Of a stretch of 64,000 nt of DNA, positions 218 to 63,975 are shown piece after piece; positions within the stretch are counted from its first letter, which is position 1; each line of letters starts with the position of its first letter. Origin of the DNA: Pseudomonadota bacterium (GTDB lineage Bacteria; Pseudomonadota; Gammaproteobacteria; BMS3Bbin11); assembly GCA_034659075.1 (NCBI GenBank), contig JAYEGM010000222.1:290-64289 (forward strand), read 5' to 3'. The notes under the pieces were generated by a model that saw only the letters and a program-made list of their open reading frames with translations, was not told the origin of the DNA and ran no database searches. The position numbers and the translations under genes are program-made.

Positions 218-270
218 CGGTTTACGGTTTACGGTTTAAAAACATAATACATAATACGTAACACGTAAAT
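218..270. repeat. Tandem heptamer array (cggttta x3, cataata x2, cgtaaca/cgtaaat) filling the recN-fur convergent gap
   Basis: Direct reading of the sequence; perfect 7-nt periodicity. Confidence 0.8.
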
Positions 271-271
271 C

Positions 272-721
272 TTATGATTTTATAACCTGCTTTTTAGAAC
301 ACTTGCCGTTCTTTTTCATGCCCCCGCAAACTCCGTACAGATACAGGCTATGGTCTTCAATACAAAAGTCTGATTCTTCGGCGACCTGTTTCTGGCGTTC
401 TTCAATACGCGAATCAAAAAATTCAAATACTTCACCGCATTCTACGCAAACCATGTGATCATGGTGTTTCCCTTCATTCAGCTCAAAAACTGAGCTGCCG
501 CCTTCAAAGTGATGGCGGATAACCAGACCTGCGCCTTCAAATTGGGTCAGGACACGATAAACAGTAGCAAGGCCAATATCCTCATCAGCATCAAGCAACT
601 GGCGGTAGACATCTTCCGCCGTCAGATGACGTTGATCGCTCAGTTCAAGCAGGCGAAGAATCTTCAGCCTGGGTACAGTCGTTTTGAGTCCAGCCTTCTT
701 CAGGTCTGATTTATCCGGCAT
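272..721 (-). CDS. fur: Ferric uptake regulator Fur
   Basis: 149 aa; N-terminal winged-helix PRLKILRLL..., metal site HHDHMVCVECGEV...; typical Fur length and motifs. Confidence 0.9.
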   Translation of the reverse strand: MPDKSDLKKAGLKTTVPRLKILRLLELSDQRHLTAEDVYRQLLDADEDIGLATVYRVLTQFEGAGLVIRHHFEGGSSVFELNEGKHHDHMVCVECGEVFEFFDSRIEERQKQVAEESDFCIEDHSLYLYGVCGGMKKNGKCSKKQVIKS

Positions 722-823
722 TTACGGCTCCAGAGAGTCATTTGAAGGATCAAAATAGTAGTCTGACCCGATACTATCAGCTATCATCCCATGCTGTCTA
801 AAAGAGTAAGGGTTAATTTTCGT

Positions 824-1246
824 ATGTCGAGATTATTGCGTATCACTGGAATTTTTCTGGCCCTGCTATTGCTGGCTTCATGTATCAAAACTTATAAACA
901 TGATGTGCAACAGGGCAATATCGTTGATCCTGACCGCCTGGCCAGGCTGGAACTGGGCATGAGCAAAAATGATGTTCAGGCCTTGCTCGGCACATCAATG
1001 CTGCAGGACAGCTTCCACCCGGATCGCTGGGACTATTTTTACTCGCTGCGCAAGGCAAGAGCAAAAAATACCGTACAAAAATTAATCACCCTTTATTTCG
1101 AAGACGATAAACTTTCGCGGATAGTCGGCACTATCACATCAACAGATGGAACAGAGGCAGGCAGCCAGACAAAAACTGTCATTATCGATGAAAAACCCTC
1201 ATCAGGCGGAATAATCCAGCGCGGCTGGGACAAGGTCTGGAAATAA
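824..1246 (+). CDS. bamE: Outer membrane protein assembly factor BamE (SmpA/OmlA lipoprotein)
   Basis: Start moved to MSRLLRITG (RBS aaggg 9 nt upstream); lipobox LLLASC; SmpA/OmlA-like sequence; conserved fur-bamE-ratB-ratA-smpB neighbourhood as in E. coli. Confidence 0.85.
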   Translation: MSRLLRITGIFLALLLLASCIKTYKHDVQQGNIVDPDRLARLELGMSKNDVQALLGTSMLQDSFHPDRWDYFYSLRKARAKNTVQKLITLYFEDDKLSRIVGTITSTDGTEAGSQTKTVIIDEKPSSGGIIQRGWDKVWK

Positions 1247-1248
1247 AC

Positions 1249-1315
1249 AAAAGGTAAAAGGTTAAAGGATAACCGGTTACGGTCCTGATAATTTTTTACC
1301 TTTTACCTTTTACCT
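1249..1315. terminator. Bidirectional hairpin between bamE and rnfH, built from heptamer repeats (aaaaggt x2-3 ... acctttt x2-3) around an aaccggtt core
   Basis: About 14-bp perfect stem aaaaggtaaaaggt / accttttacctttt with T/A runs; lies between convergent genes. Confidence 0.6.
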
Positions 1316-1627
1316 GATTTTCTCTTTCGCCCGCTGTTTGCGCATTTCCTTCGGGTCGGCAATCAATGGCCGGTATATCTCTACCCGGTCACCCGGATGC
1401 AGGACCGCATCTCTCTTTGCCGGCTTGCCGAAGACCCCCGTTTTATTGACCTCAAGATCGATTTCGGGGTATTTCTCCATTATTTTAGACTCTCTGATGG
1501 CATCATCTAACGTTGACTGCGCGGGCAGTTCAACATTAATAACGGCCTGCTCATCAGGCACGGCAAAAATAACATCAATGTGCATGGTTTCTTCATCTTT
1601 GGGTGAAGAATTTAATAAATCATTCAT
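1310..1627 (-). CDS. RnfH family protein (UPF0125, YfjF/RatB-like)
   Basis: C-terminal ...PGDRVEIYRPLIADPKEMRKQRAKE matches E. coli YfjF; ATGA start/stop overlap with upstream ratA suggests translational coupling. Confidence 0.8.
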   Translation of the reverse strand: MNDLLNSSPKDEETMHIDVIFAVPDEQAVINVELPAQSTLDDAIRESKIMEKYPEIDLEVNKTGVFGKPAKRDAVLHPGDRVEIYRPLIADPKEMRKQRAKEKIR

Positions 1628-2067: not shown

Positions 2068-2085
2068 GGGCATCATCCTCCTGCA

Positions 2086-3462: not shown

Positions 3463-3593
3463 ACTTGTATACCCTGATTCTTTCTACAAAATACGCTTTT
3501 ATCCGAAACCAGCTTCGCTGTTGACCTGTTTTATGATTGAATGCGACTTTACTACAGAACATTATTTAACATACTAAAGCCATTACACCAACC

Positions 3594-4076: not shown

Positions 4077-4145
4077 AAGTCACCTCGATTCATCAGTGGC
4101 ACCCTTTGCACTTGAAATCCTCAACATTGCCAGCAAATAACTTGC

Positions 4146-4151
4146 TATAAT
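4146..4151 (+). promoter_or_regulatory. Candidate -10 box (TATAAT) of the ssrA promoter
   Basis: gctataatg sits 10 nt upstream of the tmRNA 5-prime GGGGG; no clean -35 found. Confidence 0.4.
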
Positions 4152-4161
4152 GATCAAACTT

Positions 4162-4518
4162 GGGGGCGACCGGTTTCGACACGGGTTACAAAGCCTTCAG
4201 TGCATGTCGAGGAGCAGATCCCCTCGTAAATCCAGCTGCACAACATAGTTGCCAACGACGACAACTACGCACTAGCCGCCTAATACCGGTTAGTCCTTTC
4301 ACCTTTGCTTGATTGTGGGCGGGGATTCGAAAGGTCATCTCACACAGTATCGCGATGAGGCATGTCTGTGGCCAAGTCGTTAAACTTTAAGCAGAATCGC
4401 CGTACGTTTTCCCAGTTTGCCGGGTAGCGGCCGGTTAAATCAAAGGTGCAAACTAAGCATGTAGATCTGGAGTGTAGAGGACTTGTGGACGGGAGTTCGA
4501 TTCTCCCCGCCTCCACCA
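4162..4518 (+). ncRNA. ssrA: tmRNA (SsrA), tag peptide ANDDNYALAA
   Basis: 5-prime GGGGGCGACCGGTTTCGACA; tag reading frame gccaacgacgacaactacgcactagccgcctaa = ANDDNYALAA*; 3-prime tRNA-like end GGACGGGAGTTCGATTCTCCCCGCCTCCACCA. Confidence 0.95.
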
Positions 4519-4724
4519 ATATTTAATACAACCCCTTGTTAATCAAGGGGTTTTTATTGGGTGAAATCCAATGAATTCACTGGTGAGATACAAAGGTATG
4601 TTACCAGTGAGTTCAAGAATCCCATCTTAACCTTACAAAAAACTGTTGAAGCACTACCTGTTTGAATAAAAACATTGAATCAGAATCATCCTCAGCAAAG
4701 CTTACAATACCAATAACTTTCTTA

Positions 4725-6500
4725 TCACTTCGCACATGCAGAGCCTATTTTTTTGAATAACTCGGTAGATTCAACAGGATGGCGTAGTGAATTCTTGAAT
4801 CCTTTTCCATCAACTTTAGAGGATTTATTATTTCCAATATTGGAATGACTAAACTTGATAAGGGCTAGAATGTCCTCAGAGAATTCAGAAATTTCATTTT
4901 CATTTAATGTGTCAACAACTACGCCATATTTGCATGAACAGCTTTGAGCAGCGTATTTTTTGAGCAGCCTTGATTCATCTTCACATGACCTTACATCGCT
5001 ATTTGATAACACTGCTAGCCGCATTTTACGTGAAAGTTTTTTCGTTGCTGTAATTGAAGAAGCAACACATTCATTGTAATCATTAATGAAATAACCTCCC
5101 CTTTCCCTATAGATTTCCGTGTATTTAATAATATTTTTTGGAAGTTTTTCTCTTTCAATCTTCGCTTTGGCATATAACTCTTTTCTTTCCTCGTGACACT
5201 TTTTATATTCTGCCTGGAAATCATGAATTGTCTTATTATTTGATGCAAGACTTACATATTTTGACGGAGGCTCTTCATTCCGACAATTCATAAAATCTTC
5301 ACCTGCTTTTTTACAAGTTAGGGAAATCAATTCAGTGTCATAACATTCTGTATATCTGGTAGCGATATATTCTTCAAGCCCATCAATCTTATCAAGCATT
5401 TTTGCTTTAGATGCATATTGATTTGGTTGTAGTTTTTTCAGGTTTACTGCATCTTCCTTCCCGCTCTTACATACATCTTCTATCAGCATGTCTGCCTGTG
5501 TCTTTTGTTTTAAGTAGAGCTCCTGGTTCTCCCTCTGAACCCTATTTTTCTCTTCTTCTATACGCCTTTTCTTTATCATTTCGAGTTCAGCCAGATATCC
5601 CTTTTTCCTCTTAGCTACAAGCTGTTCGTCTAATTCCCTCATTGCATTATTAGTTGCTTTGATATTTGCCAATGCAATACTCACTCCGGACAAATACGGC
5701 AAAATCATTTGCCGTTCAATATTGCTCATTTGATAGTCGAAAGGGGCCCCTTTAGTTCTATCAAACGCATTTTTTACATCTCTTTCACCATATGTACTAA
5801 ATGCTTCTTCCGAGTAGCCAATCTGTCCTTTCATTTGCTCTAACTGTCTCTTAAATTGGTCATCCCACAATGCAAAGCTATCTAGATTAAACTCTTTCCA
5901 GCCAGTAATATTGCACCAACGAGCAATAAGCGCCTCATCATTTTTACTAACTAAATAGGCATTCTGGCAACTTTTATTGAATCTCACCCTCAAATCCTCA
6001 GCACGTTTCTTCTCAGTGGCATAGCGACCTGGAACTTCTTCTACCACAGATATCCAGTCATGAAACCAGGCAAATGGTTTTTCAGATGTATGAGGAGGTA
6101 GTTTTAACCCTGAAACATCATGATTATTCTTAGAATATTCCTTATTATTGACCTTTCTCCTGGTAATTTCTTCTGGTGTAAAAGCAGCAGCCTTGCTACC
6201 GCTATTATTGTTGTCTATAGAAGGAATTGGGGTACTTGAAATAGTCGAATTATTTCGCCTGTAACATTTCTCATATTCTTTTCTTATAAGTGCTTCAAGT
6301 TCGATATATTTGCTACCAGCATTTTTCAGGGAGATTCCCCCAGAGTCCATGGTTTTTCCGCTTTTTGCATCATCTCTACCCATCTGACAACCCTGCTTAA
6401 TCAACATATTATGTTGATTAAGCACCTCTGCAGCATTTGAGTCTGAAATCATAATGGGAACAAAAAGTAATATTGCAAAAAAAGAAACTGCAATTTTCAT
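4725..6500 (-). CDS. Hypothetical secreted cysteine-rich coiled-coil protein (signal peptide; K/E-rich; recurring [E/T]Y-x-[EK]-C motifs)
   Basis: 591 aa uninterrupted ORF with N-terminal signal peptide MKIAVSFFAILLFVPIMISDSNA; coding region roughly 35% GC against about 48% in flanks; no recognisable catalytic motifs. Confidence 0.7.
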   Translation of the reverse strand: MKIAVSFFAILLFVPIMISDSNAAEVLNQHNMLIKQGCQMGRDDAKSGKTMDSGGISLKNAGSKYIELEALIRKEYEKCYRRNNSTISSTPIPSIDNNNSGSKAAAFTPEEITRRKVNNKEYSKNNHDVSGLKLPPHTSEKPFAWFHDWISVVEEVPGRYATEKKRAEDLRVRFNKSCQNAYLVSKNDEALIARWCNITGWKEFNLDSFALWDDQFKRQLEQMKGQIGYSEEAFSTYGERDVKNAFDRTKGAPFDYQMSNIERQMILPYLSGVSIALANIKATNNAMRELDEQLVAKRKKGYLAELEMIKKRRIEEEKNRVQRENQELYLKQKTQADMLIEDVCKSGKEDAVNLKKLQPNQYASKAKMLDKIDGLEEYIATRYTECYDTELISLTCKKAGEDFMNCRNEEPPSKYVSLASNNKTIHDFQAEYKKCHEERKELYAKAKIEREKLPKNIIKYTEIYRERGGYFINDYNECVASSITATKKLSRKMRLAVLSNSDVRSCEDESRLLKKYAAQSCSCKYGVVVDTLNENEISEFSEDILALIKFSHSNIGNNKSSKVDGKGFKNSLRHPVESTELFKKIGSACAK

Positions 6501-7252: not shown

Positions 7253-8467
7253 ATGGATCTTTACCTGGACAAAACATTACAATTAAAACCAATGCTTGAA
7301 GCTCTGGCACATTCATTAGCGGAAACGGATTACACGATTAACCGCGCCGATGTAGTTCGCTGGCTGCGCCCCTTTGCGGCGACCACACCTACTTTTTATC
7401 TACTATTTGTAATCCCGTTTGCTCTACTGGGATATTTTGCTCTGCTGCTGTTTCCCGCTCTTTCGATCTGGCTATATTTCAAGCTGATAAACTCACTTTA
7501 TTATGCTGCCGACTACCAGCACTGGCCTGACGCCATGATGATTGGCAGCTTCCTGTTACTCAGCACATTGGCAACCATCGCGCTGGCTAGACTGGCTTTC
7601 AGAAACCCGGCAGGAAGTGCTGTCAACGATGAGAGGACGCCGGTACTTTTCCACCTTGTAAAAAAGCTGCAGCAGCACTATGGCAATCCCGGAATTTCCA
7701 GGATACTCATCACGAGAGACGATAGTATACAAATTACCCGCAACCCTGTTAGCGGATTTCCAATTAAGTTTAGAAATACGCTCGAGATAGGCATGTCTGC
7801 CTTATTATGCACCTCACCAATGGAATTTCGCGGCATGCTTGCCAGGGAAATTGCCAAACTAGCCAGTCAGAAGAACCCTGTAACAGGCTGGATGTTAAGC
7901 CTGCATCGACAGTGGGCAGATTATCATTATTATCTTGAGCGTAGCGGAGGCCTTATACTGAAGCCACTGAGCTTTTTCTTTCGCTACTATTCACCTTTAT
8001 ATAATACCGTGTCGTTCTTCGCCGCTCGTCGAGCTGAAATACGGTCAGATCGCTACACACTGGAAGTCATGGAGGACGACGATGCCATCAACGCCATCAT
8101 TCAAACAATAATATTTCAGAATTTCCTGCGGGAAAAATACTGGCCACAGGTCGTGAATCAACCGAAAGACGGAAAACACCGGGTATTCCTGCCCTATAAG
8201 AAAATGAGCCAGACTGTTCGAAAAAACGTCAAACAAACTGATATAGAACGATGGGTTGAACTGGAGCTGCGAAAATTTGGCGATACCAGCACGACTCTAC
8301 CGCCGCTAAAGACCCGCCTTCATCTGTTAGGGCATATAATACCTGTCTATCCACCAGCACTTGAAGAAACTGCAGCAGAACACTATCTTGATTTATCTAT
8401 GCAGCAGCTATTAATTAACAGTTTCGATAAAAGCTGGATTAGGAAAGCAGGAATACAGTCCTCATAA
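7253..8467 (+). CDS. Membrane protein with a degenerate M48/M56-peptidase-like fold (HExxH replaced by RExxK)
   Basis: N-terminal TM helices; segment ...NTLEIGMSALLCTSPMEFRGMLAREIAKLASQKNP resembles the zincin region of M48/BlaR1 peptidases (..gLL..l..eEl.aVlAHElgHi..), but the first His is Arg and the second His is Lys (RExxK), which would abolish zinc binding. Confidence 0.55.
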   Translation: MDLYLDKTLQLKPMLEALAHSLAETDYTINRADVVRWLRPFAATTPTFYLLFVIPFALLGYFALLLFPALSIWLYFKLINSLYYAADYQHWPDAMMIGSFLLLSTLATIALARLAFRNPAGSAVNDERTPVLFHLVKKLQQHYGNPGISRILITRDDSIQITRNPVSGFPIKFRNTLEIGMSALLCTSPMEFRGMLAREIAKLASQKNPVTGWMLSLHRQWADYHYYLERSGGLILKPLSFFFRYYSPLYNTVSFFAARRAEIRSDRYTLEVMEDDDAINAIIQTIIFQNFLREKYWPQVVNQPKDGKHRVFLPYKKMSQTVRKNVKQTDIERWVELELRKFGDTSTTLPPLKTRLHLLGHIIPVYPPALEETAAEHYLDLSMQQLLINSFDKSWIRKAGIQSS

Positions 8468-20870: not shown

Positions 20871-20920
20871 TTCTCTGTTAACCACAGAGGGCAGAGGGGT
20901 ACACAGAGAGAACCTTTTTT
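20871..20920 (+). terminator. Candidate intrinsic terminator of typA
   Basis: ttctctgt ... acagagagaa stem with nested ctctgt/acagag hairpin, followed by T6. Confidence 0.45.
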
Positions 20921-21153
20921 GAATTAATCCGTCATTGCGAGCACAGCGCGGCAATCTCTTTGTTTTGCTGCAGCCGTTTTGAGATTGCTTCGTCACTATG
21001 TTCCTCGTGATGACGAACCGAAGTCACTAGAATGTTTACATGATTCAGTTTTGCATTGGTGCAGACACAAGAAAAAATATCATAAAGGAACCTCTGTGAC
21101 CTCCGTGTCCTCTGTGGTGAAATAGCCTTTAGCCTTTAAATAGGAACTCCCCA

Positions 21154-34004: not shown

Positions 34005-34039
34005 CAGGTTTCAGGTTTCAGGTTTCAGGTTTCAGGTTT
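34005..34039. repeat. Perfect tandem heptamer repeat (caggttt)x5 immediately after the GGDEF-EAL stop codon
   Basis: Read directly from the sequence. Confidence 0.9.
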
Positions 34040-34112
34040 CAAGATGAAAACTGAAAACAATTATTTAATCAGAGGCTCCTTAAACTGTAGTAAAATTATC
34101 ACTCAATCCTCA

Positions 34113-38311: not shown

Positions 38312-38400
38312 ACTCTATGTTCATTTCTTTTTTTATGAAAAAAGAAATCCACCCAATATGTTGGCCTACGGCTGCTCTGCGTTCTTCTGGGGTAGACGAC

Positions 38401-40537: not shown

Positions 40538-42463
40538 CTACCATGGCTGTGGGTCACCGGCTTTACCGGAACCACCGCCACGTTGTATATACTGATAACG
40601 TAATTTCCGACGCAGCAAACCCGCCGGATCATCTGGAATCCGTCGCAGCCACTGTTCGGCTGCTATTTGTTCTTCGGAGCTTAAGTCTTCAGCTTCAGCA
40701 GTGGCTCTTCCTTTTCCTTGCTGATCACCATTCTCAGCTTGCTGTGGCTCTGCTGATTGAGCTTCTGACTGCTGAGCTTGTTCGGTACCTTTTTCACTGT
40801 CATTTCCTTCCTGCTGCTGAGCTGCCTGTTCTTCCTGCCGCTCAGACTCTTCACTTTCTGTATCCTTTCCAGCTTGTTCAGCGGCATCAGAAAAGGCGTT
40901 TTCATTGTCTTTCTTTTCTCCAGCGCCTGGCTTGTCCTCTGCCTGCTGCTGTACCTGTCCACCGCCTGAAGAATTGGATTCATCTCCCTGCTGACTATTC
41001 TTGCCCTGCTCATCCTGCTGGTTTTGCTTATCCTGATCGCCTTGCTGCTCTTTGTTGTCCTGCTTAGACTGTTGATTCTGTTCCGATTGCTTTTGCTGCT
41101 GCAGTAATTTCTCCACGGCTTTCCTGTTGAATTCAGCATCATCCATCCCTGGCTGCTCTTTCAATGCCTTATCATAAGCATCAATCGCTTCCTGCAACTT
41201 GCCAAGTTTTGCCAGCGCATTGCCCTTGTTGTAGGCCGCGTCAACACTTTCAAGTGAAAAAAAATCTTTAACCGCTGCTTCGTAATCACCCTTACGATAA
41301 TCTGCTACACCCTTGCGCAAAGGGTCCTGCGCCAGTTCAGATGCACGCTCTGCCTCACCTGCGAGCAGGGCTTTATGCGCCTGTTGATCCTGGCGCTGCC
41401 ACAGATCCGTCATACTGAATGCCATCGCCTGTTCATTTGGCATTACTGTAATGGCGAGCAGACAAACGCTCAGCAGCCAGCCACGCCGAAATGCCAGTGC
41501 GGCCAGTGGCAGGAGCAGGATAGCCAGCCAGGGCCCGGTTTCTTTCCAGCGGGTGGCCTCAAAAGTTTCATTTTCTGTATTGCTGCGAGAACCTTTGACG
41601 CGCGCTTCCATTAGCCGGCTGATATCCGCATCACTGGCAGAAAGGCTGACATAGCTGCCACCACCGGCATTGGTAAGCTTTTGCATTGCCGGAATATTAA
41701 GACTGGTAGTTATCACGTCACCGTCATTATTGGTAAAAAAACCACCCTTTCCGGTCGGCAATGGTGCGCCCTGCTCTGTGCCCATTCCCAGTACGGAGGT
41801 AATAACCCCCTGTTTTCGGAGTTTCTCTGCGACCTCGATAGTGCGCTGATCAGTATAAGAGTCGGCCAGCAGCAGAATTTCTCCCCGTAACCGCCCTGCC
41901 TGCTGCAGCAGTTCTGCTGCCTTCAGCAAACCCAGATCTGCGCGGCTGCCCTGCACCGGCATAATGCCAGGTTTCAGTGCCGGCAACATGGCGCTAATGG
42001 TGTCAGCATCACGTGTCAGCGGTGACACAACAAAAGCATCGCCGGCAAACACCACAAGCCCGATAACGCCTTCCTGCTGTAGTTTCAGTATATCGGACAC
42101 TTTAAATCGTGCACGCTCAATACGGGAGGGTTTAAGGTCGCTGCTGTTCATGGAACGGGATAGATCAAGTACGATAACACGCGCCTGATCTGTCTGAAAA
42201 ACAGGCTGCGGAAGCTTCTCCCATACCGGGTTAGCCAGAGCGATGACTGTAATGAACCAGCCTGTCGACAGCAGCCAAAATGGCAATCGGTTGCCGCTGC
42301 CGGCTTTAGAAATTCGCAACCAGCTCAATAGCTTTTTATCAATAATACTGGACCAGGCGTCATTTTCACTGCCACCCTGCCTCAGCAGCATGCCAAGAAG
42401 GAGAACTAAGGGCAGCAGTAAATAAAGCCACTGTGGCTGTAGAAAATGAAAATTTTCAGGCAT
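40538..42463 (-). CDS. BatB/BatC-like fusion: VWA domain plus TPR repeats with a long Q/E/D-rich low-complexity tail
   Basis: Start set at MPENFHF (N-terminal TM). VWA region VIVLDLSRSM...; TPR region AYNKGNALAKLGKLQEAIDAYDKAL; about 150 aa tail rich in Q, E, D and K. Confidence 0.8.
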   Translation of the reverse strand: MPENFHFLQPQWLYLLLPLVLLLGMLLRQGGSENDAWSSIIDKKLLSWLRISKAGSGNRLPFWLLSTGWFITVIALANPVWEKLPQPVFQTDQARVIVLDLSRSMNSSDLKPSRIERARFKVSDILKLQQEGVIGLVVFAGDAFVVSPLTRDADTISAMLPALKPGIMPVQGSRADLGLLKAAELLQQAGRLRGEILLLADSYTDQRTIEVAEKLRKQGVITSVLGMGTEQGAPLPTGKGGFFTNNDGDVITTSLNIPAMQKLTNAGGGSYVSLSASDADISRLMEARVKGSRSNTENETFEATRWKETGPWLAILLLPLAALAFRRGWLLSVCLLAITVMPNEQAMAFSMTDLWQRQDQQAHKALLAGEAERASELAQDPLRKGVADYRKGDYEAAVKDFFSLESVDAAYNKGNALAKLGKLQEAIDAYDKALKEQPGMDDAEFNRKAVEKLLQQQKQSEQNQQSKQDNKEQQGDQDKQNQQDEQGKNSQQGDESNSSGGGQVQQQAEDKPGAGEKKDNENAFSDAAEQAGKDTESEESERQEEQAAQQQEGNDSEKGTEQAQQSEAQSAEPQQAENGDQQGKGRATAEAEDLSSEEQIAAEQWLRRIPDDPAGLLRRKLRYQYIQRGGGSGKAGDPQPW

Positions 42464-43469
42464 GTTTCGCCTCTCTGCGCAGGAGGAAGCTGAGCAAAGA
42501 CAGTTTCGACAAGGCCAGCAATATAGATAGAACCATTGCAATCGACAGAGGCCAGAAATACAGTTCATTTACCGGCCGGTATACTTCTACGTCATCGGCT
42601 ATCGGCTCCACCTCATCCAGCAGACTGTAGATTTGCAGCAGTGATTCAACATCCCTGGCGCGGTAATAACTGCCGCCTGTCTTGTCGGATATAGCCTGTA
42701 AGGTTTCTTCATCGATATCGGCACTGACCGCTTGCTGTCGGCCAAACAAGTCTCGAACCATGCGACTGTCGGCACCCACGCCTATGGTATAAATTCTTAT
42801 CTTTTCCTGCGCGGCAAGATCGGCGGCCTTCAGCGGCTCGATAGTGCCTGCTGTATTACTGCCATCTGTTAACAGGATTAGAACGCGATTCTGTTCAGGC
42901 TCATTGCGTAAACGTTTGACTGCCAGGCCAATGGCATCACCGATGGCTGTTTTCTTTCCGGCCAGACCTATCGCAGACTCCTGCAGCAGTGTCTTTACTG
43001 TTTTTCTGTCCAGCGTCAGCGGAGTCTGCAGATATGCCCTGTCACCGAATAGAATCAAGCCAAGGCGATCACCGACACGTCGGTCGATAAACTCTCCGGC
43101 AACCGCCTTGACCGCGGCCAGACGTGATACCTGCCGGTTGCCAATTACCATATCATCGGCTTCCATGCTGCCCGAAAGGTCGACTGCAAGCATCAGGTTC
43201 CTGCCCTGTACCGGCAGTTGGATCGCATCACCAACTGACTGGGGGCGAGCGGCAGAAACCAGCAGCAGCAGCCAGATGACAACCGCAATTATGAGCCGGA
43301 TACGGGACGCCGGTCCGGCTTCATGCTGCAGTTGTGAGTGCATGGCAGCGTAAAAGGGTACACGGATGGTAGAGATCTGCAGCTCATCCGCCTTCGGTAG
43401 CAATAGCCTGATTAATAGCGGTAAAGGCAGCAGCAGAAAAATCCATGGTAATGAAAAATTTATATCCAT
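42456..43469 (-). CDS. batA: BatA-like VWA-domain membrane protein
   Basis: N-terminal TM MDINFSLPWIFLLLPLPLLI; VWA MIDAS region LMLAVDLSGSM...TDGSNTAG. Confidence 0.85.
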   Translation of the reverse strand: MDINFSLPWIFLLLPLPLLIRLLLPKADELQISTIRVPFYAAMHSQLQHEAGPASRIRLIIAVVIWLLLLVSAARPQSVGDAIQLPVQGRNLMLAVDLSGSMEADDMVIGNRQVSRLAAVKAVAGEFIDRRVGDRLGLILFGDRAYLQTPLTLDRKTVKTLLQESAIGLAGKKTAIGDAIGLAVKRLRNEPEQNRVLILLTDGSNTAGTIEPLKAADLAAQEKIRIYTIGVGADSRMVRDLFGRQQAVSADIDEETLQAISDKTGGSYYRARDVESLLQIYSLLDEVEPIADDVEVYRPVNELYFWPLSIAMVLSILLALSKLSLLSFLLRREAKHA

Positions 43470-57098: not shown

Positions 57099-57109
57099 AT
57101 CGTAAAAAC

Positions 57110-57526
57110 TTATTTTTTCAGGCTGCTCTGGTCCCAATGCACGGTGCAATCAAGCAGAGACAGTACTGAAATCAGGTCATTGCGGCTACCGCGACCCAGA
57201 ATTTCTACCGGACGATGGTTATCCAGATGACGGTTTTTCTGTTTGATCCAGAACATGGCCATTTGAGGATTGGTCGGATAAGTGGTTCTTAAGGCATCAC
57301 TGATATGCGCCAGAAGTGAGACCCGCTGCTGGATCTGTTCATCATCAGGGAAAGGCTTGTTCTCGCGGTGCTGGCGCAATGTACGCGTGCGCGTGCCTTC
57401 TGGAAACCCCAAAACCCGTATCTGCTGCTCTGCATCCAGTCCGAACTGGTCAAGCATACGAATTATGCCCTGTGTCTGCTGCATCTTTTTTTCCTGTAAG
57501 TCCTGATCCATAACTCTCACCCTCAA
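57110..57526 (-). CDS. DUF2384 / Xre-like antitoxin-family protein (ParS/MbcA-type toxin-binding domain), solitary
   Basis: C-terminal ...PTNPQMAMFWIKQKNRHLDNHRPVEILGRGSRNDLISVLSLLDCTVHW matches the DUF2384 consensus (..PNPALGGRRPLDLL.TE.G...V..LLGRIEHGV.); N-terminal Xre-like HTH region; no RES-domain gene adjacent. Confidence 0.6.
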   Translation of the reverse strand: MRVRVMDQDLQEKKMQQTQGIIRMLDQFGLDAEQQIRVLGFPEGTRTRTLRQHRENKPFPDDEQIQQRVSLLAHISDALRTTYPTNPQMAMFWIKQKNRHLDNHRPVEILGRGSRNDLISVLSLLDCTVHWDQSSLKK

Positions 57527-57567: not shown

Positions 57568-57610
57568 TCATACACATTATTTCAGGGGATATATCAGGAA
57601 TATAATTAAA

Positions 57611-57814
57611 ATGAAATGGATAGATAAACTGTCATGGCCGGTGGTGATTGTAATAACCGCCACACTGGGTCTTGCACCCTTTTCTCCACAACCTCATGTA
57701 GTCGAAAAGCTGGCTATGCTGCTCAATGGAACACTGTCCAGACCCATTGATATATTCGACCTTCTGCTGCATGGTACGCCGTGGGTTTTTCTTGGATATG
57801 GGGAAAGAAGCTAA
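57611..57814 (+). CDS. Small membrane protein (67 aa), unknown function
   Basis: One TM helix WPVVIVITATLGLAPF; divergent from the DUF2384 gene. Confidence 0.45.
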   Translation: MKWIDKLSWPVVIVITATLGLAPFSPQPHVVEKLAMLLNGTLSRPIDIFDLLLHGTPWVFLGYGERS

Positions 57815-57826
57815 ATGAAAGTATTA

Positions 57827-57877
57827 CGTTTTATGGTTTAGGTTTTACGTAAAACCTAATACCTAAAACCTAAAACA
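57827..57877. repeat. Palindromic heptamer-repeat element (22-bp perfect palindrome ttaggttttacgtaaaacctaa flanked by cctaaaa repeats)
   Basis: Read directly from the sequence; lies immediately after the stop of the 67-aa gene. Confidence 0.85.
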
Positions 57878-58860: not shown

Positions 58861-58969
58861 TGGGGCTAAAGTTCAGACTAAGGATAAAAGATAAAACCGT
58901 CATTCCGGCATGCTTTTAGCCGGAATCCATCAAATTAAAAAAACTGGATTTGCTTTCCCCCTTTCCTCC

Positions 58970-59518
58970 TTAGCCCTTAGTCTTATCCGTTGACCTCCCA
59001 TCCCCTTCGTCTACCTCCACCAAAATCCTTCGCCACTGCTCAAGCTTCTCATCAAAACGCATCGCCGCATATGCCGGGCTGGTAGAAGGCAGCTTTTGAT
59101 AACGCAGCTCGCAAGAATAAATCTCTTTCTGGCAGAGAACATGTTTTTTATATAATCGCTCAGCAGTACCGCCATTAAAGTAGACACATCTAATCGAGCG
59201 ATGAGCAGAAAATAATCGGACAAAATCATTCGCCTGCTCAGTAGCAGTCTCGATGCTCGAATCCAGACTGCCAACCCTATTGCAGGTTTTCAATACATCC
59301 CAGACAGCCAGGCCACAGTCCGTAAGCCTTGTACAACGTTCATCATAGTCGCTGCCCCGTTCGATATCGAGCAGCTCTTGCATAATCGGCCAGAACGCAT
59401 TTCTGGGGTGCGCATAGTATTGCTGCTGTCGTAAAGAAGCCACGCCCGGCATGGATCCCAGAATCAGAACTCTGCAATTTTCCTGCACCACAGGATCAAA
59501 GCTTCTTAAAAGGGCCAT
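58970..59518 (-). CDS. UDG-superfamily DNA glycosylase (DNA-deoxyinosine / hypoxanthine glycosylase-like)
   Basis: RVLILGSMPGVASL motif and overall UDG-fold pattern; start set at MALLRSF. Confidence 0.65.
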   Translation of the reverse strand: MALLRSFDPVVQENCRVLILGSMPGVASLRQQQYYAHPRNAFWPIMQELLDIERGSDYDERCTRLTDCGLAVWDVLKTCNRVGSLDSSIETATEQANDFVRLFSAHRSIRCVYFNGGTAERLYKKHVLCQKEIYSCELRYQKLPSTSPAYAAMRFDEKLEQWRRILVEVDEGDGRSTDKTKG

Positions 59519-60684
59519 ACATCTCTTGCCAGGCGCAAGCCGGCAAACATATGGCGTTTTTCCGGCTGGTAGAAGTTGCGAAATGATGGGTGGCAAACAG
59601 TCTTTCCTGAAAACCGACTATTACCTTTTAATGTGTAATGATTGCCATCAAACCAGGGACTGGAATAGCGTTCATACGGGAAGGCCTTGAAGCCCGGATA
59701 GGGGAAAAAGGTATTGGCGCACCATTCCCACACTTCTCCGGTCGACTTATTTAACACAGGATCTGATGCCACTGCAGCCTCCCATTCGTGTTCATGCGGT
59801 AATCGGCAAGCCGCATAACGTGCAAAAGCATCCGCTTCATACCAGCTAATTCCCGAAACAGCTGCATCGGGATCAATATCTACAACCCCCTCTGGGCTTA
59901 TTTCACACCAGTTTTCTGATTTATCACGCAGCCAGAATTCAGGTGCATGTAATTGTCTCTCTGTTATCCATTGCCAGCCAGCCCTGCTCCAGAAACTTTT
60001 TTGCTGATAACCGGCGGCCTGCATAAAACCCAGATACTCGGCATTACTGACCGGTTTCTCAGCAAGTTGATAAGCAGCAAGCTCTGTTTCATGTACCGGT
60101 TGTTCATTATCACAGGCCAGAACATCATTGGAGCCGACTTCGTATCTACCTTGTTCAAACGATGCTTCTGGCAACGCGGGTCCGTGTGCATCAAAGCTTT
60201 TAACCATTGAATTTGTTACAGATGCCGTTCCAAGGGCTTTCTGATGCAGTGCCATCTGCATCGTTTCCAGGTGCTGTTCGCCGTGCTGGAGCAGAAACCA
60301 GCCAATATAATCATATTCCAGCAGCGGATGCTTCTGTTGCCTGGATAGTTTTTCGAATAACAGGACGGACAATAAATTTTCCGCATCAGAAAAGTCATGC
60401 TGCAGACGTGAAAAGTCAGTCATCCCCGGCAACTCACCGCGTTCAGACTTAGCTATCATTTCCGGAAAATAACAGTGATGAAAACCTGCAGTTCTGCTGT
60501 TGTCATTCAGCAAAACTTCGCGCAACCAGTACTGCTCGATAAACGCAACATGTGCAAGATGCCAGCCCAACTGACTGAGATCAGCGTGATACTGATTACG
60601 CAATTCTGCCTCAGAACAGGTGGAAAACTGTTTTATCAGCCGATCATGTAGAGATGAAAGACCCTCTGCAACTGATGTATTCAC
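59506..60684 (-). CDS. egtB: Ergothioneine biosynthesis sulfoxide synthase EgtB-like (DinB_2 plus FGE-sulfatase domains)
   Basis: N-terminal DinB-like HxxxE region (WHLAHVAFIEQYW); C-terminal FGE-like domain (...GEVWEWC...); 4-nt overlap with upstream egtC; egtD adjacent. Confidence 0.75.
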   Translation of the reverse strand: MNTSVAEGLSSLHDRLIKQFSTCSEAELRNQYHADLSQLGWHLAHVAFIEQYWLREVLLNDNSRTAGFHHCYFPEMIAKSERGELPGMTDFSRLQHDFSDAENLLSVLLFEKLSRQQKHPLLEYDYIGWFLLQHGEQHLETMQMALHQKALGTASVTNSMVKSFDAHGPALPEASFEQGRYEVGSNDVLACDNEQPVHETELAAYQLAEKPVSNAEYLGFMQAAGYQQKSFWSRAGWQWITERQLHAPEFWLRDKSENWCEISPEGVVDIDPDAAVSGISWYEADAFARYAACRLPHEHEWEAAVASDPVLNKSTGEVWEWCANTFFPYPGFKAFPYERYSSPWFDGNHYTLKGNSRFSGKTVCHPSFRNFYQPEKRHMFAGLRLARDVWPF

Positions 60685-61460
60685 AAATGGATTTCTACCG
60701 GCACATTACCGCCGTCAAAAACCATTAATGACTGCGGTGTCACTTCTGTCCAGTCCGCATCATCCGTCAACGGCTCAGAGGCAACCAGACAGGCGCCGGG
60801 AAATGGCGGGGGATTTAGTGAGTAATATAACGAAGGACAGTTTCCATTGATTGCACAGCGCATCGCCCAGATTTTCCCGGGGACAGCAATGATTATATTT
60901 AACAGACCGCGTTCATCTTTTAACCAGGCTTTTAATCGCGAAACCATTTCAATCAATGCCGCAGCCGGGTCATTTGTATTCATTTCCCACATGATTTGCT
61001 TAAACAGGATGAACAAGTGCTCTGAATCGGTATTGCCTTCGATAAAATCCTCGAATTCAGGTTTAAATTCTCGCCGTAAACATGAACGAAGTGTGCGTGA
61101 AAATTTATTAATATAACCGTTATGCATGAACTGAAATTTTTCATCCGCATAAGGCATGGTATTGGCAAGATTGATCGGGATATTTGTCGTGGCACTGCGC
61201 ACAACAGCTACCCAGGTATCAGATTTCAACCCTCGGCCTAACTCAGGCAAATTCGGATCGGTCCAGATAGGCATGGTCTGTCGATATCGTAATGGCTGAC
61301 CCATCTGATCAAACCAGCCAAAGCCGTAGCCATCAGCATTCAGCCTGGCTTCTATCATTTCTCTGGGAGCCCATGACTGCTTCACCAGGCTATGCTCCGG
61401 CTTGAGCAGCATTTCTTCTAGCCGCAAAGCAGGACCAATATAAGCTGCAAGTCTGCACAT
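60681..61460 (-). CDS. egtC: Class-II glutamine amidotransferase EgtC-like amidohydrolase
   Basis: N-terminal MCRLAAYIG (Ntn Cys nucleophile); ...DGYGFGWFD; about 259 aa, typical of EgtC. Confidence 0.75.
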   Translation of the reverse strand: MCRLAAYIGPALRLEEMLLKPEHSLVKQSWAPREMIEARLNADGYGFGWFDQMGQPLRYRQTMPIWTDPNLPELGRGLKSDTWVAVVRSATTNIPINLANTMPYADEKFQFMHNGYINKFSRTLRSCLRREFKPEFEDFIEGNTDSEHLFILFKQIMWEMNTNDPAAALIEMVSRLKAWLKDERGLLNIIIAVPGKIWAMRCAINGNCPSLYYSLNPPPFPGACLVASEPLTDDADWTEVTPQSLMVFDGGNVPVEIHL

Positions 61461-61536
61461 AATTCTCTCTGAAACTTTATTAGACAGTAAACTGTCACTT
61501 AGTATAATGAAAAATAATTAAAAACAAAGGAATGCT

Positions 61537-62541
61537 ATGCAAGAAGCTGTAAAAATTGACTCAAGCCGGTTTCAGTTAAACCGGCTATCACCGGAACAGC
61601 ATCTAGATTCACTGGTAGAGGACATCTACGCAGGTTTGCTGAGCCGCCCCCGCAGCTTGCCGCCAAAGTACTTCTATGATGAGCGCGGCTCTATGCTATT
61701 TGATCAGATTTGCCAGACCAATGAGTATTACCTGACGCGAGCTGAATCCGCACTTTTAAAGAAGCATGCCGATGAGATCGTCGCCACTGTAAGGCCAACG
61801 GCTATTGTTGAATACGGCAGTGGCACATCCGAAAAAACCGAGCTGCTTATTCAGGCAGCCAATCAGCATTACGACTGGTTGCATTACCTGCCGCTGGATG
61901 TCTGCGAAGAAATACTGATTGAGTCGTCGAAGCGTCTGTTAGACAGATATCCCTGGTTATCCATTGATGCATGGCATGGTGACTTTTTACATGATATGCA
62001 ACTATTCAATAATAGTCATACACGCAGCCTTTATACTTTTCTTGGCAGCTCCTTAGGTAATTTTTCATATGATGAGGCCAGCCAGTTTTTGCGCGATGTG
62101 AGAAATACAGCCTATGACGATGACTGGTTTCTGCTGGGTATTGATATGGTCAAAGATCACAGCATCCTGAATGCTGCCTATAATGACATTGAGGGATACA
62201 CAGCAGCATTTAACCTTAATCTGCTGAATGTACTGAACCAGGCACTTGATGGTAATTTTAATACTGAAAAATTCGAACACCACGCTTTTTTTGATGTTGA
62301 TAATTCCCGTGTCGAAATGCGTTTACGCTCCTGTTGCCGGCAAACCGTTATACTCCGGGATATTGATTTAAAGATAGATTTCGAGGATGGCGAACACATT
62401 ACTACGGAATACAGCCGGAAATACACAGCCGACTCGATACACCAGCTATTGACCAGCACCGGCTTCTCTCCAGAGCATATATACACGGGTGACAACAATG
62501 AATTTATGCTGATCCTTTCTCGATGTTCAAAAGCCGATTAA
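61537..62541 (+). CDS. egtD: L-histidine N-alpha-methyltransferase EgtD
   Basis: Hallmark motif LPPKYFYDERGSMLFDQI... and SAM-binding VEYGSGTSEKT; about 330 aa. Confidence 0.88.
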   Translation: MQEAVKIDSSRFQLNRLSPEQHLDSLVEDIYAGLLSRPRSLPPKYFYDERGSMLFDQICQTNEYYLTRAESALLKKHADEIVATVRPTAIVEYGSGTSEKTELLIQAANQHYDWLHYLPLDVCEEILIESSKRLLDRYPWLSIDAWHGDFLHDMQLFNNSHTRSLYTFLGSSLGNFSYDEASQFLRDVRNTAYDDDWFLLGIDMVKDHSILNAAYNDIEGYTAAFNLNLLNVLNQALDGNFNTEKFEHHAFFDVDNSRVEMRLRSCCRQTVILRDIDLKIDFEDGEHITTEYSRKYTADSIHQLLTSTGFSPEHIYTGDNNEFMLILSRCSKAD

Positions 62542-62600
62542 GAATAATAGTTCAAAGTTGGAAGACAGAAGACAATAGGGTATAAAATAACTCTCTTCTT

Positions 62601-63911
62601 ATGACAAAAACGACCAGAACTTTAGCCCCGCGAAAAGAACTTATTTCCTGGGCAATGTATGACTTTGCTAATTCCGGCTACACCACCGTTGTTTTAACTG
62701 CTATTTTCAATGCCTATTTTGTTGGCGTTATCGCCGCATCAGTTGATAGCACTAACGGTGGCACAGGCACCTTGCTGTGGAGTTTAAGTATCGGTGCTGC
62801 AAATACATTGATTCTTTTTACTGCGCCTGTACTCGGAGCAATCGCTGACTTCTCAGCGTCCAAGAAAAAGATGCTTGCCTATAGCACGATTGGCTGTATC
62901 GTCATGACTGCCCTGCTAGGTTTTACCGGTCCAGATCAACTGCTACTCAGCATGTTATTTCTGGCGGGCTCGGCATTTTTGTTTGGTACCGGCGAAAACC
63001 TGATCGCGGCATTTCTGCCGGAAATTGCCCCGCCGGATAAAGTCGGCAAGGTTTCCGGTTTCAGCTGGGCACTGGGCTATGTAGGCGGCCTGCTGGTACT
63101 CGCACTCTGCCTCATCTATATAGAAAGCGTTAAGCCATTGGGACAGACTGCAGAACAATATGTCCCTGTTACACTCTGGATTACCGCCCTGATTTTTGCC
63201 CTGGCAGCTACACCAACTTTCCTTTTCCTGAAAGAAAGGGCTCAACCAGCAGGCAGTACGCCTTCCACAATATCTTCTTATACCCGGACCGGCTTTTCCC
63301 GCCTCAAGCAAACCCTGCAGCACAGGCACCAGTTTCGTGACCTGTTTCGGTTTCTTTTCGCATTGAGCATCTTCAGCAGCGGGGTCTATACCGTTATTGT
63401 CATCGCAGCCATCTATGCCCAGGAAGTGATGCACTTCTCCACTACTGAAAATATCATCATGATCATGGTGGTCAATATCACAGCTGCTATCGGTGCCTTT
63501 GTCTTCGGGCTGTTTCAGGATCGCCTGGGAGCTAAACGCACATTAGAGCTGACATTACTAATATGGATACTCGCCATTACTGTTGCCTGGCAAGGTGAGA
63601 CGAAGACCCAATTCTGGATCGCCGCCAATTTAATCGGGCTGGCCATGGGCTCCAGTCAGTCAGCCGGGCGTGCCCTGGTGGCTCTGTTTGCCCCGGATGG
63701 CCGCACAGCTGAATTTTTTGGCCTGTGGGGCCTGTCAATCAAACTGGCCGCCATCATTGGCCCCATGAGCTATGGAATCATCGCCTGGTACAGCAACGGC
63801 GACCACCGCCAGGCCATTTTCTCTACTTTGATGTTTTTTGTTGTCGGATTAATCGTCCTGTTTACTGTAAATGAAAAGCGTGGACGGGAGGCGGCGGTGG
63901 TTGGGGAGTAG
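62601..63911 (+). CDS. MFS transporter (UMF1/Atg22-like family)
   Basis: 436 aa, 12 TM; N-terminal SWAMYDFANSGYTTVVLTAIF is characteristic of Atg22-like MFS. Confidence 0.85.
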   Translation: MTKTTRTLAPRKELISWAMYDFANSGYTTVVLTAIFNAYFVGVIAASVDSTNGGTGTLLWSLSIGAANTLILFTAPVLGAIADFSASKKKMLAYSTIGCIVMTALLGFTGPDQLLLSMLFLAGSAFLFGTGENLIAAFLPEIAPPDKVGKVSGFSWALGYVGGLLVLALCLIYIESVKPLGQTAEQYVPVTLWITALIFALAATPTFLFLKERAQPAGSTPSTISSYTRTGFSRLKQTLQHRHQFRDLFRFLFALSIFSSGVYTVIVIAAIYAQEVMHFSTTENIIMIMVVNITAAIGAFVFGLFQDRLGAKRTLELTLLIWILAITVAWQGETKTQFWIAANLIGLAMGSSQSAGRALVALFAPDGRTAEFFGLWGLSIKLAAIIGPMSYGIIAWYSNGDHRQAIFSTLMFFVVGLIVLFTVNEKRGREAAVVGE

Positions 63912-63912
63912 A

Positions 63913-63975
63913 AGTTTCAAGTTTCAAGTTTCAAGTCTTAAGACGAAAGACGAAAGACGAAAGACGAAAGACGAA
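63913..63975. repeat. Tandem heptamer arrays (agtttca)x3 then (agacgaa)x5 directly after the MFS stop codon
   Basis: Read directly from the sequence. Confidence 0.9.

Follow-up and report, generated by a model that had tools for sequence, protein, structure and literature searches.

The short tandemly repeated repetitive (STRR) heptanucleotides of heterocystous cyanobacteria were reportedly described by Mazel et al. in 1990. Arrays of the same period are the subject of this study. The stretch analyzed, hereafter the window, comprises 64,000 nucleotides (nt) of contig JAYEGM010000222.1 from a Pseudomonadota bacterium (GTDB lineage Gammaproteobacteria; BMS3Bbin11; assembly GCA_034659075.1), and several of its intergenic spacers carry tandem arrays of 7-nt units near gene 3' ends. 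Like the STRR sequences, these form several tandem heptanucleotide families per genome and lie outside genes; unlike them, they occur in another phylum and have other units, and whereas STRR units are found genome-wide, each locus within the 64-kb window has a unit of its own.

Heptameric simple sequence repeats (SSRs) are over-represented in many bacteria, and polymerase slippage has been proposed as the explanation (Mrazek et al. 2007, as summarized in PMC4692102, which also cites the heptanucleotide repeats of Calothrix PCC7601). The GGGAATC repeats of Xanthomonas and the GGGGA(C/T)T repeats of Nostoc are intergenic, lie near the ends of open reading frames (ORFs) and seldom occur between divergent genes (Rehm et al. 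2015, PMC4692102). Those of Xanthomonas occur between the same gene pairs in related species, where their length and sequence vary extensively, and in both genera some arrays form inverted pairs between convergent genes, with no function established (PMC4692102). The window arrays share with these repeats the tandem 7-nt units, the bias towards non-coding DNA, the proximity to ORF ends, the rarity between divergent genes and the partly inverted arrangement. However, Xanthomonas and Nostoc each have one G-rich unit per genome, which forms G-quadruplexes (G4) and favors four copies, whereas here there are many units per genome, each consisting of an A/T run plus three to four mixed bases. With no more than two G in succession, these units are not expected to form G4.

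In marine Beggiatoaceae, direct repeats of TAACTGA in 2-6 copies are intergenic, abundant and sporadically distributed (MacGregor 2015, PMC4679880). Most precede a start codon by a few nt and take the place of the Shine-Dalgarno site; of 170 sets, a single one is indirect (inverted), and cold-shock-domain, S1 and CsrA proteins have been discussed as candidate binders (PMC4679880). The present lineage is likewise gammaproteobacterial, with abundant, sporadically distributed intergenic heptamer direct repeats, but in place of a single unit at start codons it has diverse units at 3' ends that are often inverted. In Haemophilus influenzae, a transcribed (ATCTTTC)n array at hmw1A and hmw2A supplies one side of a long RNA hairpin that RNase III cleaves; this repeat is confined to a single locus in the 5' untranslated region (5'-UTR), has at least 11 copies, varies in length between strains and is paired with a G-rich arm that is not a repeat (PMC12721329). 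Heptamers with a T run form hairpin arms here as well, and the hmw unit ATCTTTC itself is seen in one relative (L082); the difference is that the present arrays occupy many 3'-end loci, have 2-7 copies, and are partnered by an inverted array. Repetitive extragenic palindromic (REP) sequences, bacterial interspersed mosaic elements (BIMEs) and REP doublets forming hairpins (REPINs) are extragenic imperfect palindromes at 3' ends, frequently between convergent genes, with paired inverted units. A genome has several families of them, close relatives differ in their presence or absence, and other elements insert into their loops. REPINs and similar dispersed elements combine a conserved element sequence with a changing location. 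Extragenic 3'-end hairpins, inverted arms, turnover between relatives and loop insertions are all found here, but the arms of REP sequences are unique stretches of 20-40 nt with a genome-wide consensus and not tandem heptamers of variable copy number.

The arrays in the window show each tested feature of the intergenic heptanucleotide SSR class. They are not members of the G4-forming or the TAACTGA families: none of their 15 canonical units contains GGG or CCC, and TAACTGA is missing among them. This lineage is a new example of a class that is known, and unexplained, from cyanobacteria, Xanthomonas and Beggiatoaceae. In position, hairpin form and turnover the sequences resemble REP elements and REPINs, as the preliminary description of the window had suggested; membership proper would further call for a RAYT (REP-associated tyrosine transposase) gene and for per-genome copy numbers. 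We regard as mildly probable a composite reading in which the arrays belong to slippage-evolving hairpin elements at gene 3' ends that have been partly dispersed. If anything here should prove new, it would be the evidence for spread.

Arrays were detected with Tandem Repeats Finder (TRF), a count of perfect arrays for each period, and direct reading of the sequence (Table 1). Every heptamer array listed in the preliminary description was recovered in place by TRF and sequence reading, and three were added to it, (TGAAAAC)2 at 34045, (GAAGACA)2 at 62561, and (GATAAAA)2 at 58883. Perfect arrays of at least three copies numbered five for period 7 and zero for periods 4-6 and 8-15, and no period-7 array of this length occurred in 100 dinucleotide-preserving shuffles. 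When two copies were accepted, the window contained 16 perfect period-7 arrays and the shuffles a mean of 3.4 (maximum 9). A mismatch-tolerant lag-match score, the same for periods 4-15, returned seven arrays for period 7 and none for any other period. Period 7 is the sole tandem-repeat period in excess within the window, and the strictness of the 7-nt unit, also noted at the outset, stands. We rejected an assembly artefact as the source, since sequencing reads exceed the arrays in length and the arrays turn up again in independent NCBI, JGI, ENA, and Logan assemblies. Searches of the window against Rfam at gathering thresholds matched a tmRNA and three tRNAs only, with no match at the arrays.

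Table 1. Heptamer arrays and associated elements of the window, with the state of the MFS-clpB spacer in seven genomes. Positions are those of the window; for the MFS-clpB rows the third and fourth columns give the left and right sides of the spacer.
Feature	Position	Sequence	Setting	Basis
Element A, left arm	218-238	(CGGTTTA) x3	11 nt past recN stop (204-206)	TRF, perfect-array count, sequence
Element A, right arm	242-270	ACATAAT ACATAAT ACGTAAC ACGTAAA, degenerate; CATAATA/CGTAACA units at 242-268	ends 1-3 nt short of fur stop (272-274, minus strand)	
Element B (family 1), left arm	1249-1268	AAAAGGT AAAAGGT TAAAGG	2 nt past bamE stop	
Element B, loop	1269-1293	motif AACCGGTTACGG	motif kept in family-1 copies of L082 and L084	alignment, blast
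Element B, right arm	1294-1315	(TTTTACC) x3.1	contains rnfH stop (1310-1312, minus strand)	
Distinct related element with inverted arms of 9-nt units	20878-21121	CACAGAGGG... (arm 20878-20910); ACCTCTGTG x3 (arm 21090-21121)		
Array before pepN	21123-21138	(TAGCCTT) x2.3	16 nt before pepN start; adjoins element with 9-nt-unit arms	
Element C	34005-34041	(CAGGTTT) x5.3	from first base past stop of GGDEF-EAL gene (34002-34004)	
Element C, partner	34045-34058	(TGAAAAC) x2	unit is the family-2 unit (GTTTTCA)	
Element D, left arm	57824-57850	TTACGTT TTATGGT TTAGGTT TTACG, imperfect	9 nt past stop of 67-aa ORF	
Element D, right arm	57850-57876	(TAAAACC) x3.9		
Element D, perfect palindrome	57838-57859	22 nt		
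Minor array	58883-58896	(GATAAAA) x2	convergent spacer; adjoins small GC-rich palindrome	
Array before MFS gene	62561-62574	(GAAGACA) x2	spacer between egtD-like gene and MFS gene	
Element E1	63912-63936	(AAGTTTC) x3.6	from first base past MFS stop (63909-63911)	
Element E2	63940-63976	(AAGACGA) x5.3	same 7-nt phase as E1; both units start AAG	
MFS-clpB, window		(AAGTTTC)3.6, AAGTCTT, (AAGACGA)5.3	right arm beyond window end	
MFS-clpB, L172		one AAGTTCC, then (GTTTTCA)7 with own inverted arm	CTTGGAA	
MFS-clpB, L173		AAGATCC AAGTTTC AAGTTCC	five CTTGGAA-type units	
MFS-clpB, L084		(AAGTTTC)4.3	twelve CTTGAAA/CTTAAAA/CTTGGAA units	
MFS-clpB, L086		(AAGTTCC)-type x4	(GGAACTT)4.7	
MFS-clpB, L085		other unit, TTTTACG-type	matching inverted arm	
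MFS-clpB, L087		other unit, GTTTTCA/GTGTTCT	matching inverted arm	

In the window and its relatives together (158 kb), all 18 array loci are intergenic (intergenic share 9%, chance ~2e-19). Arrays occupy 14 of the 83 spacers that hold a 3' end and none of the 32 divergent spacers, which make up 37% of intergenic bases (Fisher p = 0.007, an optimistic value as orthologous spacers are counted separately). Within the window they are present in three of seven convergent spacers, in three tandem spacers, and in none of ten divergent ones. The arrays are confined to non-coding DNA in spacers with a gene 3' end, in keeping with the placement first proposed for them. That proposal had also set them immediately past stop codons, which is correct for elements A-E, where arrays start 0 to 11 nt past a stop, but not for the array at 21123, 256 nt past the previous stop. 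The 67-amino-acid (aa) ORF (57611-57814) upstream of element D is conserved in L084. We considered whether the arrays might supply stops in all frames after read-through and dropped the idea; CAGGTTT, AAGTTTC, and AAGACGA are stop-free on the plus strand.

Arrays in such positions might be purely mutational debris, the product of in-place slippage in unconstrained DNA, functionless and immobile, with similar units arising by AT-rich convergence. The units do differ between window loci, the arrays fill the room between stops, and some of them, such as AAGACGA x5, have no partner. On the other hand, arrays are missing from the divergent spacers, and a run of 3-4 A or T is present in 12 of the 15 canonical units, beyond what composition would give (expected fraction 0.29, p = 6.5e-5, some units being interrelated). 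These runs would also suit a binding platform for a single-strand OB-fold protein of the cold-shock-domain or S1 type, which takes 6-7 nt per domain and might exert post-transcriptional control at mRNA 3' ends. According to the summary in PMC4679880, CspB of Bacillus subtilis binds heptamer direct repeats, one protein per heptamer, with T-rich repeats preferred, a footprint equal to the unit length found here, and direct arrays such as (CAGGUUU)5 would remain single-stranded. However, the units vary widely, the T-rich strand is not consistently the transcribed strand, and half of the arrays would be locked in a stable duplex. We therefore consider this explanation very improbable. CsrA sites were dropped because GGA is present in some units only, and Rho utilisation and Hfq sites because their spacings of ~12 nt and 3 nt misfit a 7-nt unit.

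The arrays had been described as often palindromic, and inverted array pairs are indeed carried by A, B, C, and D, four of the five main loci in the window. Among them is element A, previously listed as direct repeats at 218-270, which forms an imperfect pair: its CGGTTTA arm and its degenerate CGTAAAC-type arm are 75-78% complementary in two registers. The arms of element B are 94% complementary, the (TGAAAAC)2 partner in element C can pair with the CAGGTTT array at 92% complementarity in any of three registers spaced exactly 7 nt apart, and the arms of element D are 83% complementary around the 22-nt perfect palindrome. When the window and relatives are taken together, an inverted two-unit partner lies within 300 nt of 10 of the 19 arrays, where unit-shuffled controls expect 1.2. 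The pairing is thus ~8x commoner than in the controls, which argues against mutational debris, and its frequency further separates these arrays from those of Xanthomonas and Nostoc. Element A (207-271, plus strand) folds with -13.9 kcal/mol (z -3.4 against shuffled sequences), the two strands of element B with -23.6 and -23.9 kcal/mol (z -4.0 and -4.1), and those of element D with -17.1 and -20.3 kcal/mol (z -4.0 and -4.1). Four of five hairpins folded from relatives have z from -4.6 to -7.3, including the family-2 hairpin of L172 (-33.3 kcal/mol, z -6.1) and the family-1 copy of L084 (-36.9 kcal/mol, z -7.3); that of L087 is not significant (z -1.5).

In element A, successive paired stretches of 8, 5 and 3 bp are separated by 2-nt internal loops, so that the stem is interrupted at 7-nt intervals, as expected if each arm had been homogenised independently. 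Because both arms are periodic, they can pair in several registers 7 nt apart, and unequal arm lengths are therefore tolerated. Element E1 forms the left side of a hairpin, the opposite arm of which, made of CTTGAAA/CTTGGAA units, lies at the clpB promoter in relatives; the window stops before any such right arm could appear. Element E2 has no inverted partner inside the window, and its array is missing from all six relatives compared.

Like intrinsic terminators, the hairpins stand directly past stops, and U-rich sequence follows element B, which has U-rich tails on both strands. The pattern of a canonical terminator, with a GC-rich stem, a 3-8-nt loop and a U tract, was nevertheless dropped as an explanation, since the array hairpins have AU-rich stems with periodic mismatches and loops of ~25 nt, or far more with insertions. 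Canonical terminators are present elsewhere in the window, for example at 4530-4552 after the tmRNA. Array-free 3' spacers do not have strong hairpins instead (z ~0), a comparison that is uninformative on terminator function. By analogy with REP and BIME sequences, we suggest that the hairpins, when transcribed, most likely act as 3'-end RNA structures; they might terminate transcription weakly or in both directions, block 3' exonucleases, or be cut by RNase III. Separately, an 11-bp A/U-only hairpin (UUUCUUUUUUU AUGA AAAAAAGAAA) of non-heptamer type is located at 38312-38340, directly past the stop of a ferric-reductase-like gene.

Relatives were reached via homologues of BamE, the MFS protein, and a Trx-HEAT protein; they are uncultured gammaproteobacterial metagenome-assembled genomes (MAGs), several of them labelled Arenicellales by their depositors. 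The closest are MAG GCA_048633015.1, whose loci L081 and L172 have 94.5% and 96.3% nt identity to the window, and Logan contig L170 (96-97% nt identity). More distant are L173 (92% aa identity in the MFS protein), L084-L087 (85-89% aa in the same protein), and L082 and L164 (83% and 80% aa in BamE). L083, L167-169 and L171 (~74-83% aa identity) are practically free of heptamer arrays, both in the orthologous spacers and across 20 kb of flanking DNA. Array richness is accordingly a trait of a sub-lineage; that arrays can be missing from the same spacers also indicates that they are dispensable, as debris would be. Close relatives have 9 arrays in 55 kb, a density of 162 per Mb; the window has 109 per Mb and unrelated loci have 14 per Mb.

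These unrelated loci formed a control set of 2.1 Mb (156 loci), drawn from the listed matches of a scan with Fur as query, the best of them 70% identical. Here too period 7 is the commonest non-triplet period, with 30 arrays compared with 4 of period 8 and 2 of period 5, which can be set down in favor of slippage without function. The heptamer arrays of the control set are concentrated in 15 of the 156 loci. Unit cores are lineage-specific, AGTCnnn reaching 9.4 copies in L011 and CTCGnnn up to 7 copies in L012, and the arrays of L004 repeat GCAAGTG. The arrays of these unrelated gammaproteobacterial MAGs lie at 12662-12769 in L011, at 505-553, 7655-7698, and 10486-10529 in L012, and at 411-436 and 7397-7470 in L004; L142 (five arrays) and L067 are also dense in them, and several are located directly past fur, as in the window. 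The arrays had been thought specific to one genome. Their presence in related MAGs and in some unrelated gammaproteobacterial ones contradicts this, and they are better described as lineage-wide.

We compared the orthologous recN-fur, bamE-rnfH, GGDEF-Trx, and MFS-clpB spacers across L081-L087, L164, and L170-L173. Relative to L081, genes and promoter-bearing spacers are 92-98% identical, whereas the array spacers of elements A and B are 54% and 43% identical, that is, effectively unrelated. The same spacers of L081 have heptamers of other units: (GTTTTCA)4 after recN, and CTAAGGA CAAAGGA CAAAGGA ... TTTTCTT TCGTCTT TATTCTT TAGTCTT after bamE. No alignment with L170 was possible for spacer C and the final nine codons of the GGDEF-EAL gene, although the flanks are 96-97% identical, and in L172 the array spacers are likewise replaced. 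At 94-97% identity the difference thus consists of replacement of the whole spacer. Array spacers change far faster than the surrounding genes. The divergent fur-bamE spacer, which measures 69 nt in the window, is enlarged in L164 (9633-10000) and L165 (4338-4705) by an insertion of ~300 nt, a non-heptamer palindromic element with long internal complementarity (GTGCCATGTCTCTGCGAGACC ... GAGATATGGCACAAT).

The MFS 3' spacer was tracked through seven genomes (Table 1). Copy number varies there between relatives, with AAGTTTC x3.6 and x4.3 and AAGTTCC x4 on the left and right arms of 4.7, 5 and 12 units. Likewise, L172 has three units, GAAGACA GAAGACA GCAGACA, at the site of the window's (GAAGACA)2. 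At locus D the window reads TAAAACC TAATACC TAAAACC and L084 reads TGAAAAC TGAACAC CGAAAAC CGAAAAC, so that a unit substitution reaches every copy (CCTAAAA in the window, CCGAAAA in L084), and after recN in L082 the units form a stepwise gradient, GTTGAGG TTTGAGG ATTAAGG ATAAAAG ATGAAAG ATGAAAG. Read from the sequences, the copy-number change, the array-wide unit variants and the L082 gradient bear the apparent signature of slipped-strand gain and loss with concerted evolution. Slippage-type change in copy number, in line with one of the mechanisms proposed initially, is seen between relatives, with AAGTTTC x3.6 in the window and x4.3, along with 12 inverted units, in L084. The accompanying expectation of copy-number variation between strains was not borne out in the sole same-population comparison available, three samples with identical arrays.

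Two element families recur at non-orthologous spacers, and most arrays are arms of extragenic hairpins, which is where the likeness to REP elements lies. In family 1, element B and an element of L084 are 84% identical over 67 nt, including the loop motif AACCGRTTACGRT. The L084 copy lies between genes for a histidine kinase and an Xre-like protein, a spacer non-orthologous to that of element B, and the window counterpart of this site comprises 11 nt only (57099-57109); between the filled site in L084 and the empty site in the window the edges are clean. In L082 the family-1 copy is split by a 2.7-kb two-gene insertion between loop and right arm (bamE-rnfH hairpin; L082 10596-12769). The inserted genes are an NTP-transferase/GlmU-like gene and a 315-aa ORF without a Pfam match. 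Family 2 has the form (GTTTTCA)n, a loop starting AAGTnTAT, and then CTGAAAA CTGAACA CCGAAAA C. It is found at four loci in three genomes (MFS-clpB in L172, recN-fur in L081, the D locus in L084, and MFS-clpB in L087), hence twice in MAG GCA_048633015.1 (L081 and L172), and a remnant lies next to array C in the window. A 22-mer of family 2 is identical between L172 and L084, whose lineages are ~78-86% identical to the window in coding DNA; the chance of this is about 0.01-0.04. Both the retention of the family-1 loop and arms at a non-orthologous locus and the identity of this 22-nt arm are difficult to reconcile with in-place slippage alone. Weighing this together with the placement and pairing of the arrays, we think it unlikely that they are mutational debris.

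Elements are also nested. Loops with nested insertions are present in L082, L084, L086, and L172. The interiors of the MFS-clpB element differ among L084, L086, L172, and L173. In L172 the loop insert is a family-2 element and in L086 one with 9-nt-unit arms, whereas L084 and L173 have inserts of 145 and 85 nt. The window has its own element with 9-nt-unit arms at 20878-21121, which is similar to a miniature inverted-repeat transposable element (MITE), with arms of three 9-nt units (CACAGAGGG-type and ACCTCTGTG-type) around ~180 nt that include an inner palindrome, GAGATTGCTTCGTCA / TGACGAACCGAAGTCA. This arm type is also seen at L086 1806-1960, L172 ~5395-5478, L096 682-815, and L111 17042-17167, that is, in close relatives and in two unrelated metagenome contigs, with interiors that differ.

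Families 1 and 2 keep their sequence while their location turns over, orthologous spacers are replaced between genomes that are 94-97% identical, elements are nested inside the loops of others, and other lineages have unit cores of their own (AGTCnnn in L011, CTCGnnn in L012). Such features might be expected of genuinely mobile, REPIN- or MITE-like elements whose movement depends on a dedicated enzyme (for example RAYT or an IS200/IS605-type TnpA) acting on single-stranded hairpins, with the heptamers as its binding sites setting the unit length. The clean edges of the filled L084 site, without target duplication, are what hairpin-dependent transposition would leave. However, the gene tables of the window and relatives (~190 kb only) contain no transposase or RAYT gene, the window has at least five unit types with no family occurring twice, and the divergence of family 1 between the window and L084 (84% identity) is close to the divergence of the genomes, which fits old copies lost differentially as well. 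We rate this explanation as distinctly unlikely. In contrast to MITEs, the elements have neither a clear target-site duplication nor a conserved interior. The possibility that the arms are target-site-duplication footprints of a transposon was dropped, since the arms are not direct but inverted copies and the filled and empty sites do not differ by a duplication.

In relatives, the MFS gene is followed by clpB (NCBIfam NF008118). The consensus of a sigma-32 promoter is CTTGAAA, 13-15 nt, CCCCATnT, and in L084 the gene-proximal CTTGAAA/CTTGGAA unit lies 14 nt upstream of CCCCATAT, ahead of clpB. This unit and CCCCATAT match the consensus and form a putative promoter. In the relatives, the clpB -35 box coincides with the last unit before the gene in a heptamer array that can reach 12 units (L084 11488-11640, L086 1982-2075, L173 4320-4415, L172 2735-2805, L087 3380-3455). 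In L087 there are only two such units before clpB, CTTGAGA CTTGTTA, and a sigma-32-type consensus is also found ahead of grpE in L083. The window ends before clpB, and its sequence past 63976 is unlike that of all relatives. As the units coincide with the sigma-32 -35 motif, an array can incorporate, or grow from, a functional 7-nt motif.

This arrangement raises the question of whether the arrays are contingency loci, in which copy number would alter the spacing of a downstream promoter or the structure of a 5'-UTR, for which the (ATCTTTC)n array at hmw is a precedent (PMC12721329). The clpB-promoter arrays differ among relatives (4.7, 5 and 12 units), and the window arrays at 21123 and 63940 are located just upstream of start codons. 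Yet most arrays lie between convergent stops with no gene downstream, the flanking genes are housekeeping genes, copy number does not vary among three samples of one population, and growth away from the -10 box leaves the proximal -35 unit unmoved, so that expression need not change. A contingency function is, in our judgment, highly unlikely.

Returning to the composite reading, we propose that the arrays are heptanucleotide SSRs that form the arms, or arm remnants, of extragenic hairpins in post-gene spacers, and that two processes may shape them. In the first, whole 7-nt units would be gained and lost by slipped-strand mispairing and variants would spread inside an arm by concerted evolution; copy number and unit would then drift rapidly while the arm stays internally uniform. 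Quasipalindrome template switching provides a basis for palindrome-templated repair, by which changes in one arm might be copied to the other, if they are not simply tolerated through multi-register pairing. In the second process, whole elements would be replaced and would spread, presumably by a hairpin-dependent route, and their loops would accept further insertions; the spread is suggested by the same hairpin families in non-orthologous 3' spacers of different genomes. Partnerless arrays such as AAGACGA x5 would be local expansions. As to why the unit is seven, the replication machinery may prefer to slip by 7-nt units, units longer than ~4 nt may escape mismatch repair, and a 7-nt unit shifts the reading frame, which may confine arrays to non-coding DNA.

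Several observations weigh against this composite reading. The filled L084 site shows no evident target-site duplication relative to the empty window site, no transposase or RAYT gene was found in the ~190 kb of gene tables, and the evidence for spread consists of two families in those ~190 kb from several genomes, with no two copies of any one family inside the window. L164-166, from three samples of one population, have identical arrays with no copy-number variation, from which it follows that slippage is not fast on that timescale. The folds of element C (-17.1 and -16.4 kcal/mol, z -0.5 and -0.4) and element E (-12.6 kcal/mol, z -1.0) are not significant against shuffles. Finally, a simple intrinsic-terminator scan called no array hairpin, the stems being AU-rich and the loops long (25 nt in element B). 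Taken as a whole, the initial observation of heptamer arrays is confirmed, and the interpretation placed on it is partly supported.

The window otherwise has the gene content of a housekeeping chromosome: recN, fur, bamE, rnfH, ratA, and smpB, followed by the tmRNA, and further ppiD, lon, clpX, clpP, and tig; typA, pepN, and purL; a MoxR/BatA-D cluster; and an egtB/C/D-like cluster. The last of these (59506-62541) lies upstream of the MFS/Atg22-like transporter gene and encodes FGE-sulfatase/DinB_2, class-II glutamine amidotransferase, and histidine-specific methyltransferase domains. Immediately beyond the tmRNA (4162-4518) lie two large ORFs, one of 591 aa (4725-6500, minus strand) and one of 404 aa (7253-8467, plus strand), that have no Pfam or NCBIfam match and are kept in the relative L169 (4496-6265 and 7071-8237). 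At the post-tmRNA position L166 has a phage-type integrase and a RadC gene, and on this sequence evidence the region is probably an island integration site at ssrA. A 27-nt tandem repeat (2.2 copies, 73% match) is located at 41005-41064 within a VWA/TPR (BatB-like) gene (40538-42568). At 57110-57526, on the minus strand, an Xre/MbcA/ParS-like antitoxin gene was identified by weak Pfam matches; no toxin gene adjoins it, and its stop lies 11 nt from that of the convergent histidine-kinase gene.

The accumulation of repeats of exactly seven nt in bacteria has been a puzzle since the cyanobacterial description, with neither function nor mechanism established. The lineage described here offers informative natural variation in this respect, as it combines many units per genome, hairpin-paired arrays, spacer turnover at 94-97% identity, and families at non-orthologous sites, and such variation could let slippage, mobility, and RNA-level function be told apart. 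The array spacers are hypervariable markers and are likely break points or error sites in short-read MAG assembly. A bolder proposal, which we consider improbable, is that the elements constitute a hitherto undescribed, self-spreading class of extragenic hairpins with heptamer-microsatellite arms, combining REPIN-like spread, length hypervariability, and multi-register pairing, with the 7-nt unit imposed by a lineage-specific factor that measures seven nt. If true, this factor might be, for example, a hairpin-binding transposase or an OB-fold protein, and a factor of this kind in each lineage could explain the other heptamer cores, TAACTGA, GGGAATC, AGTCnnn, and CTCGnnn.

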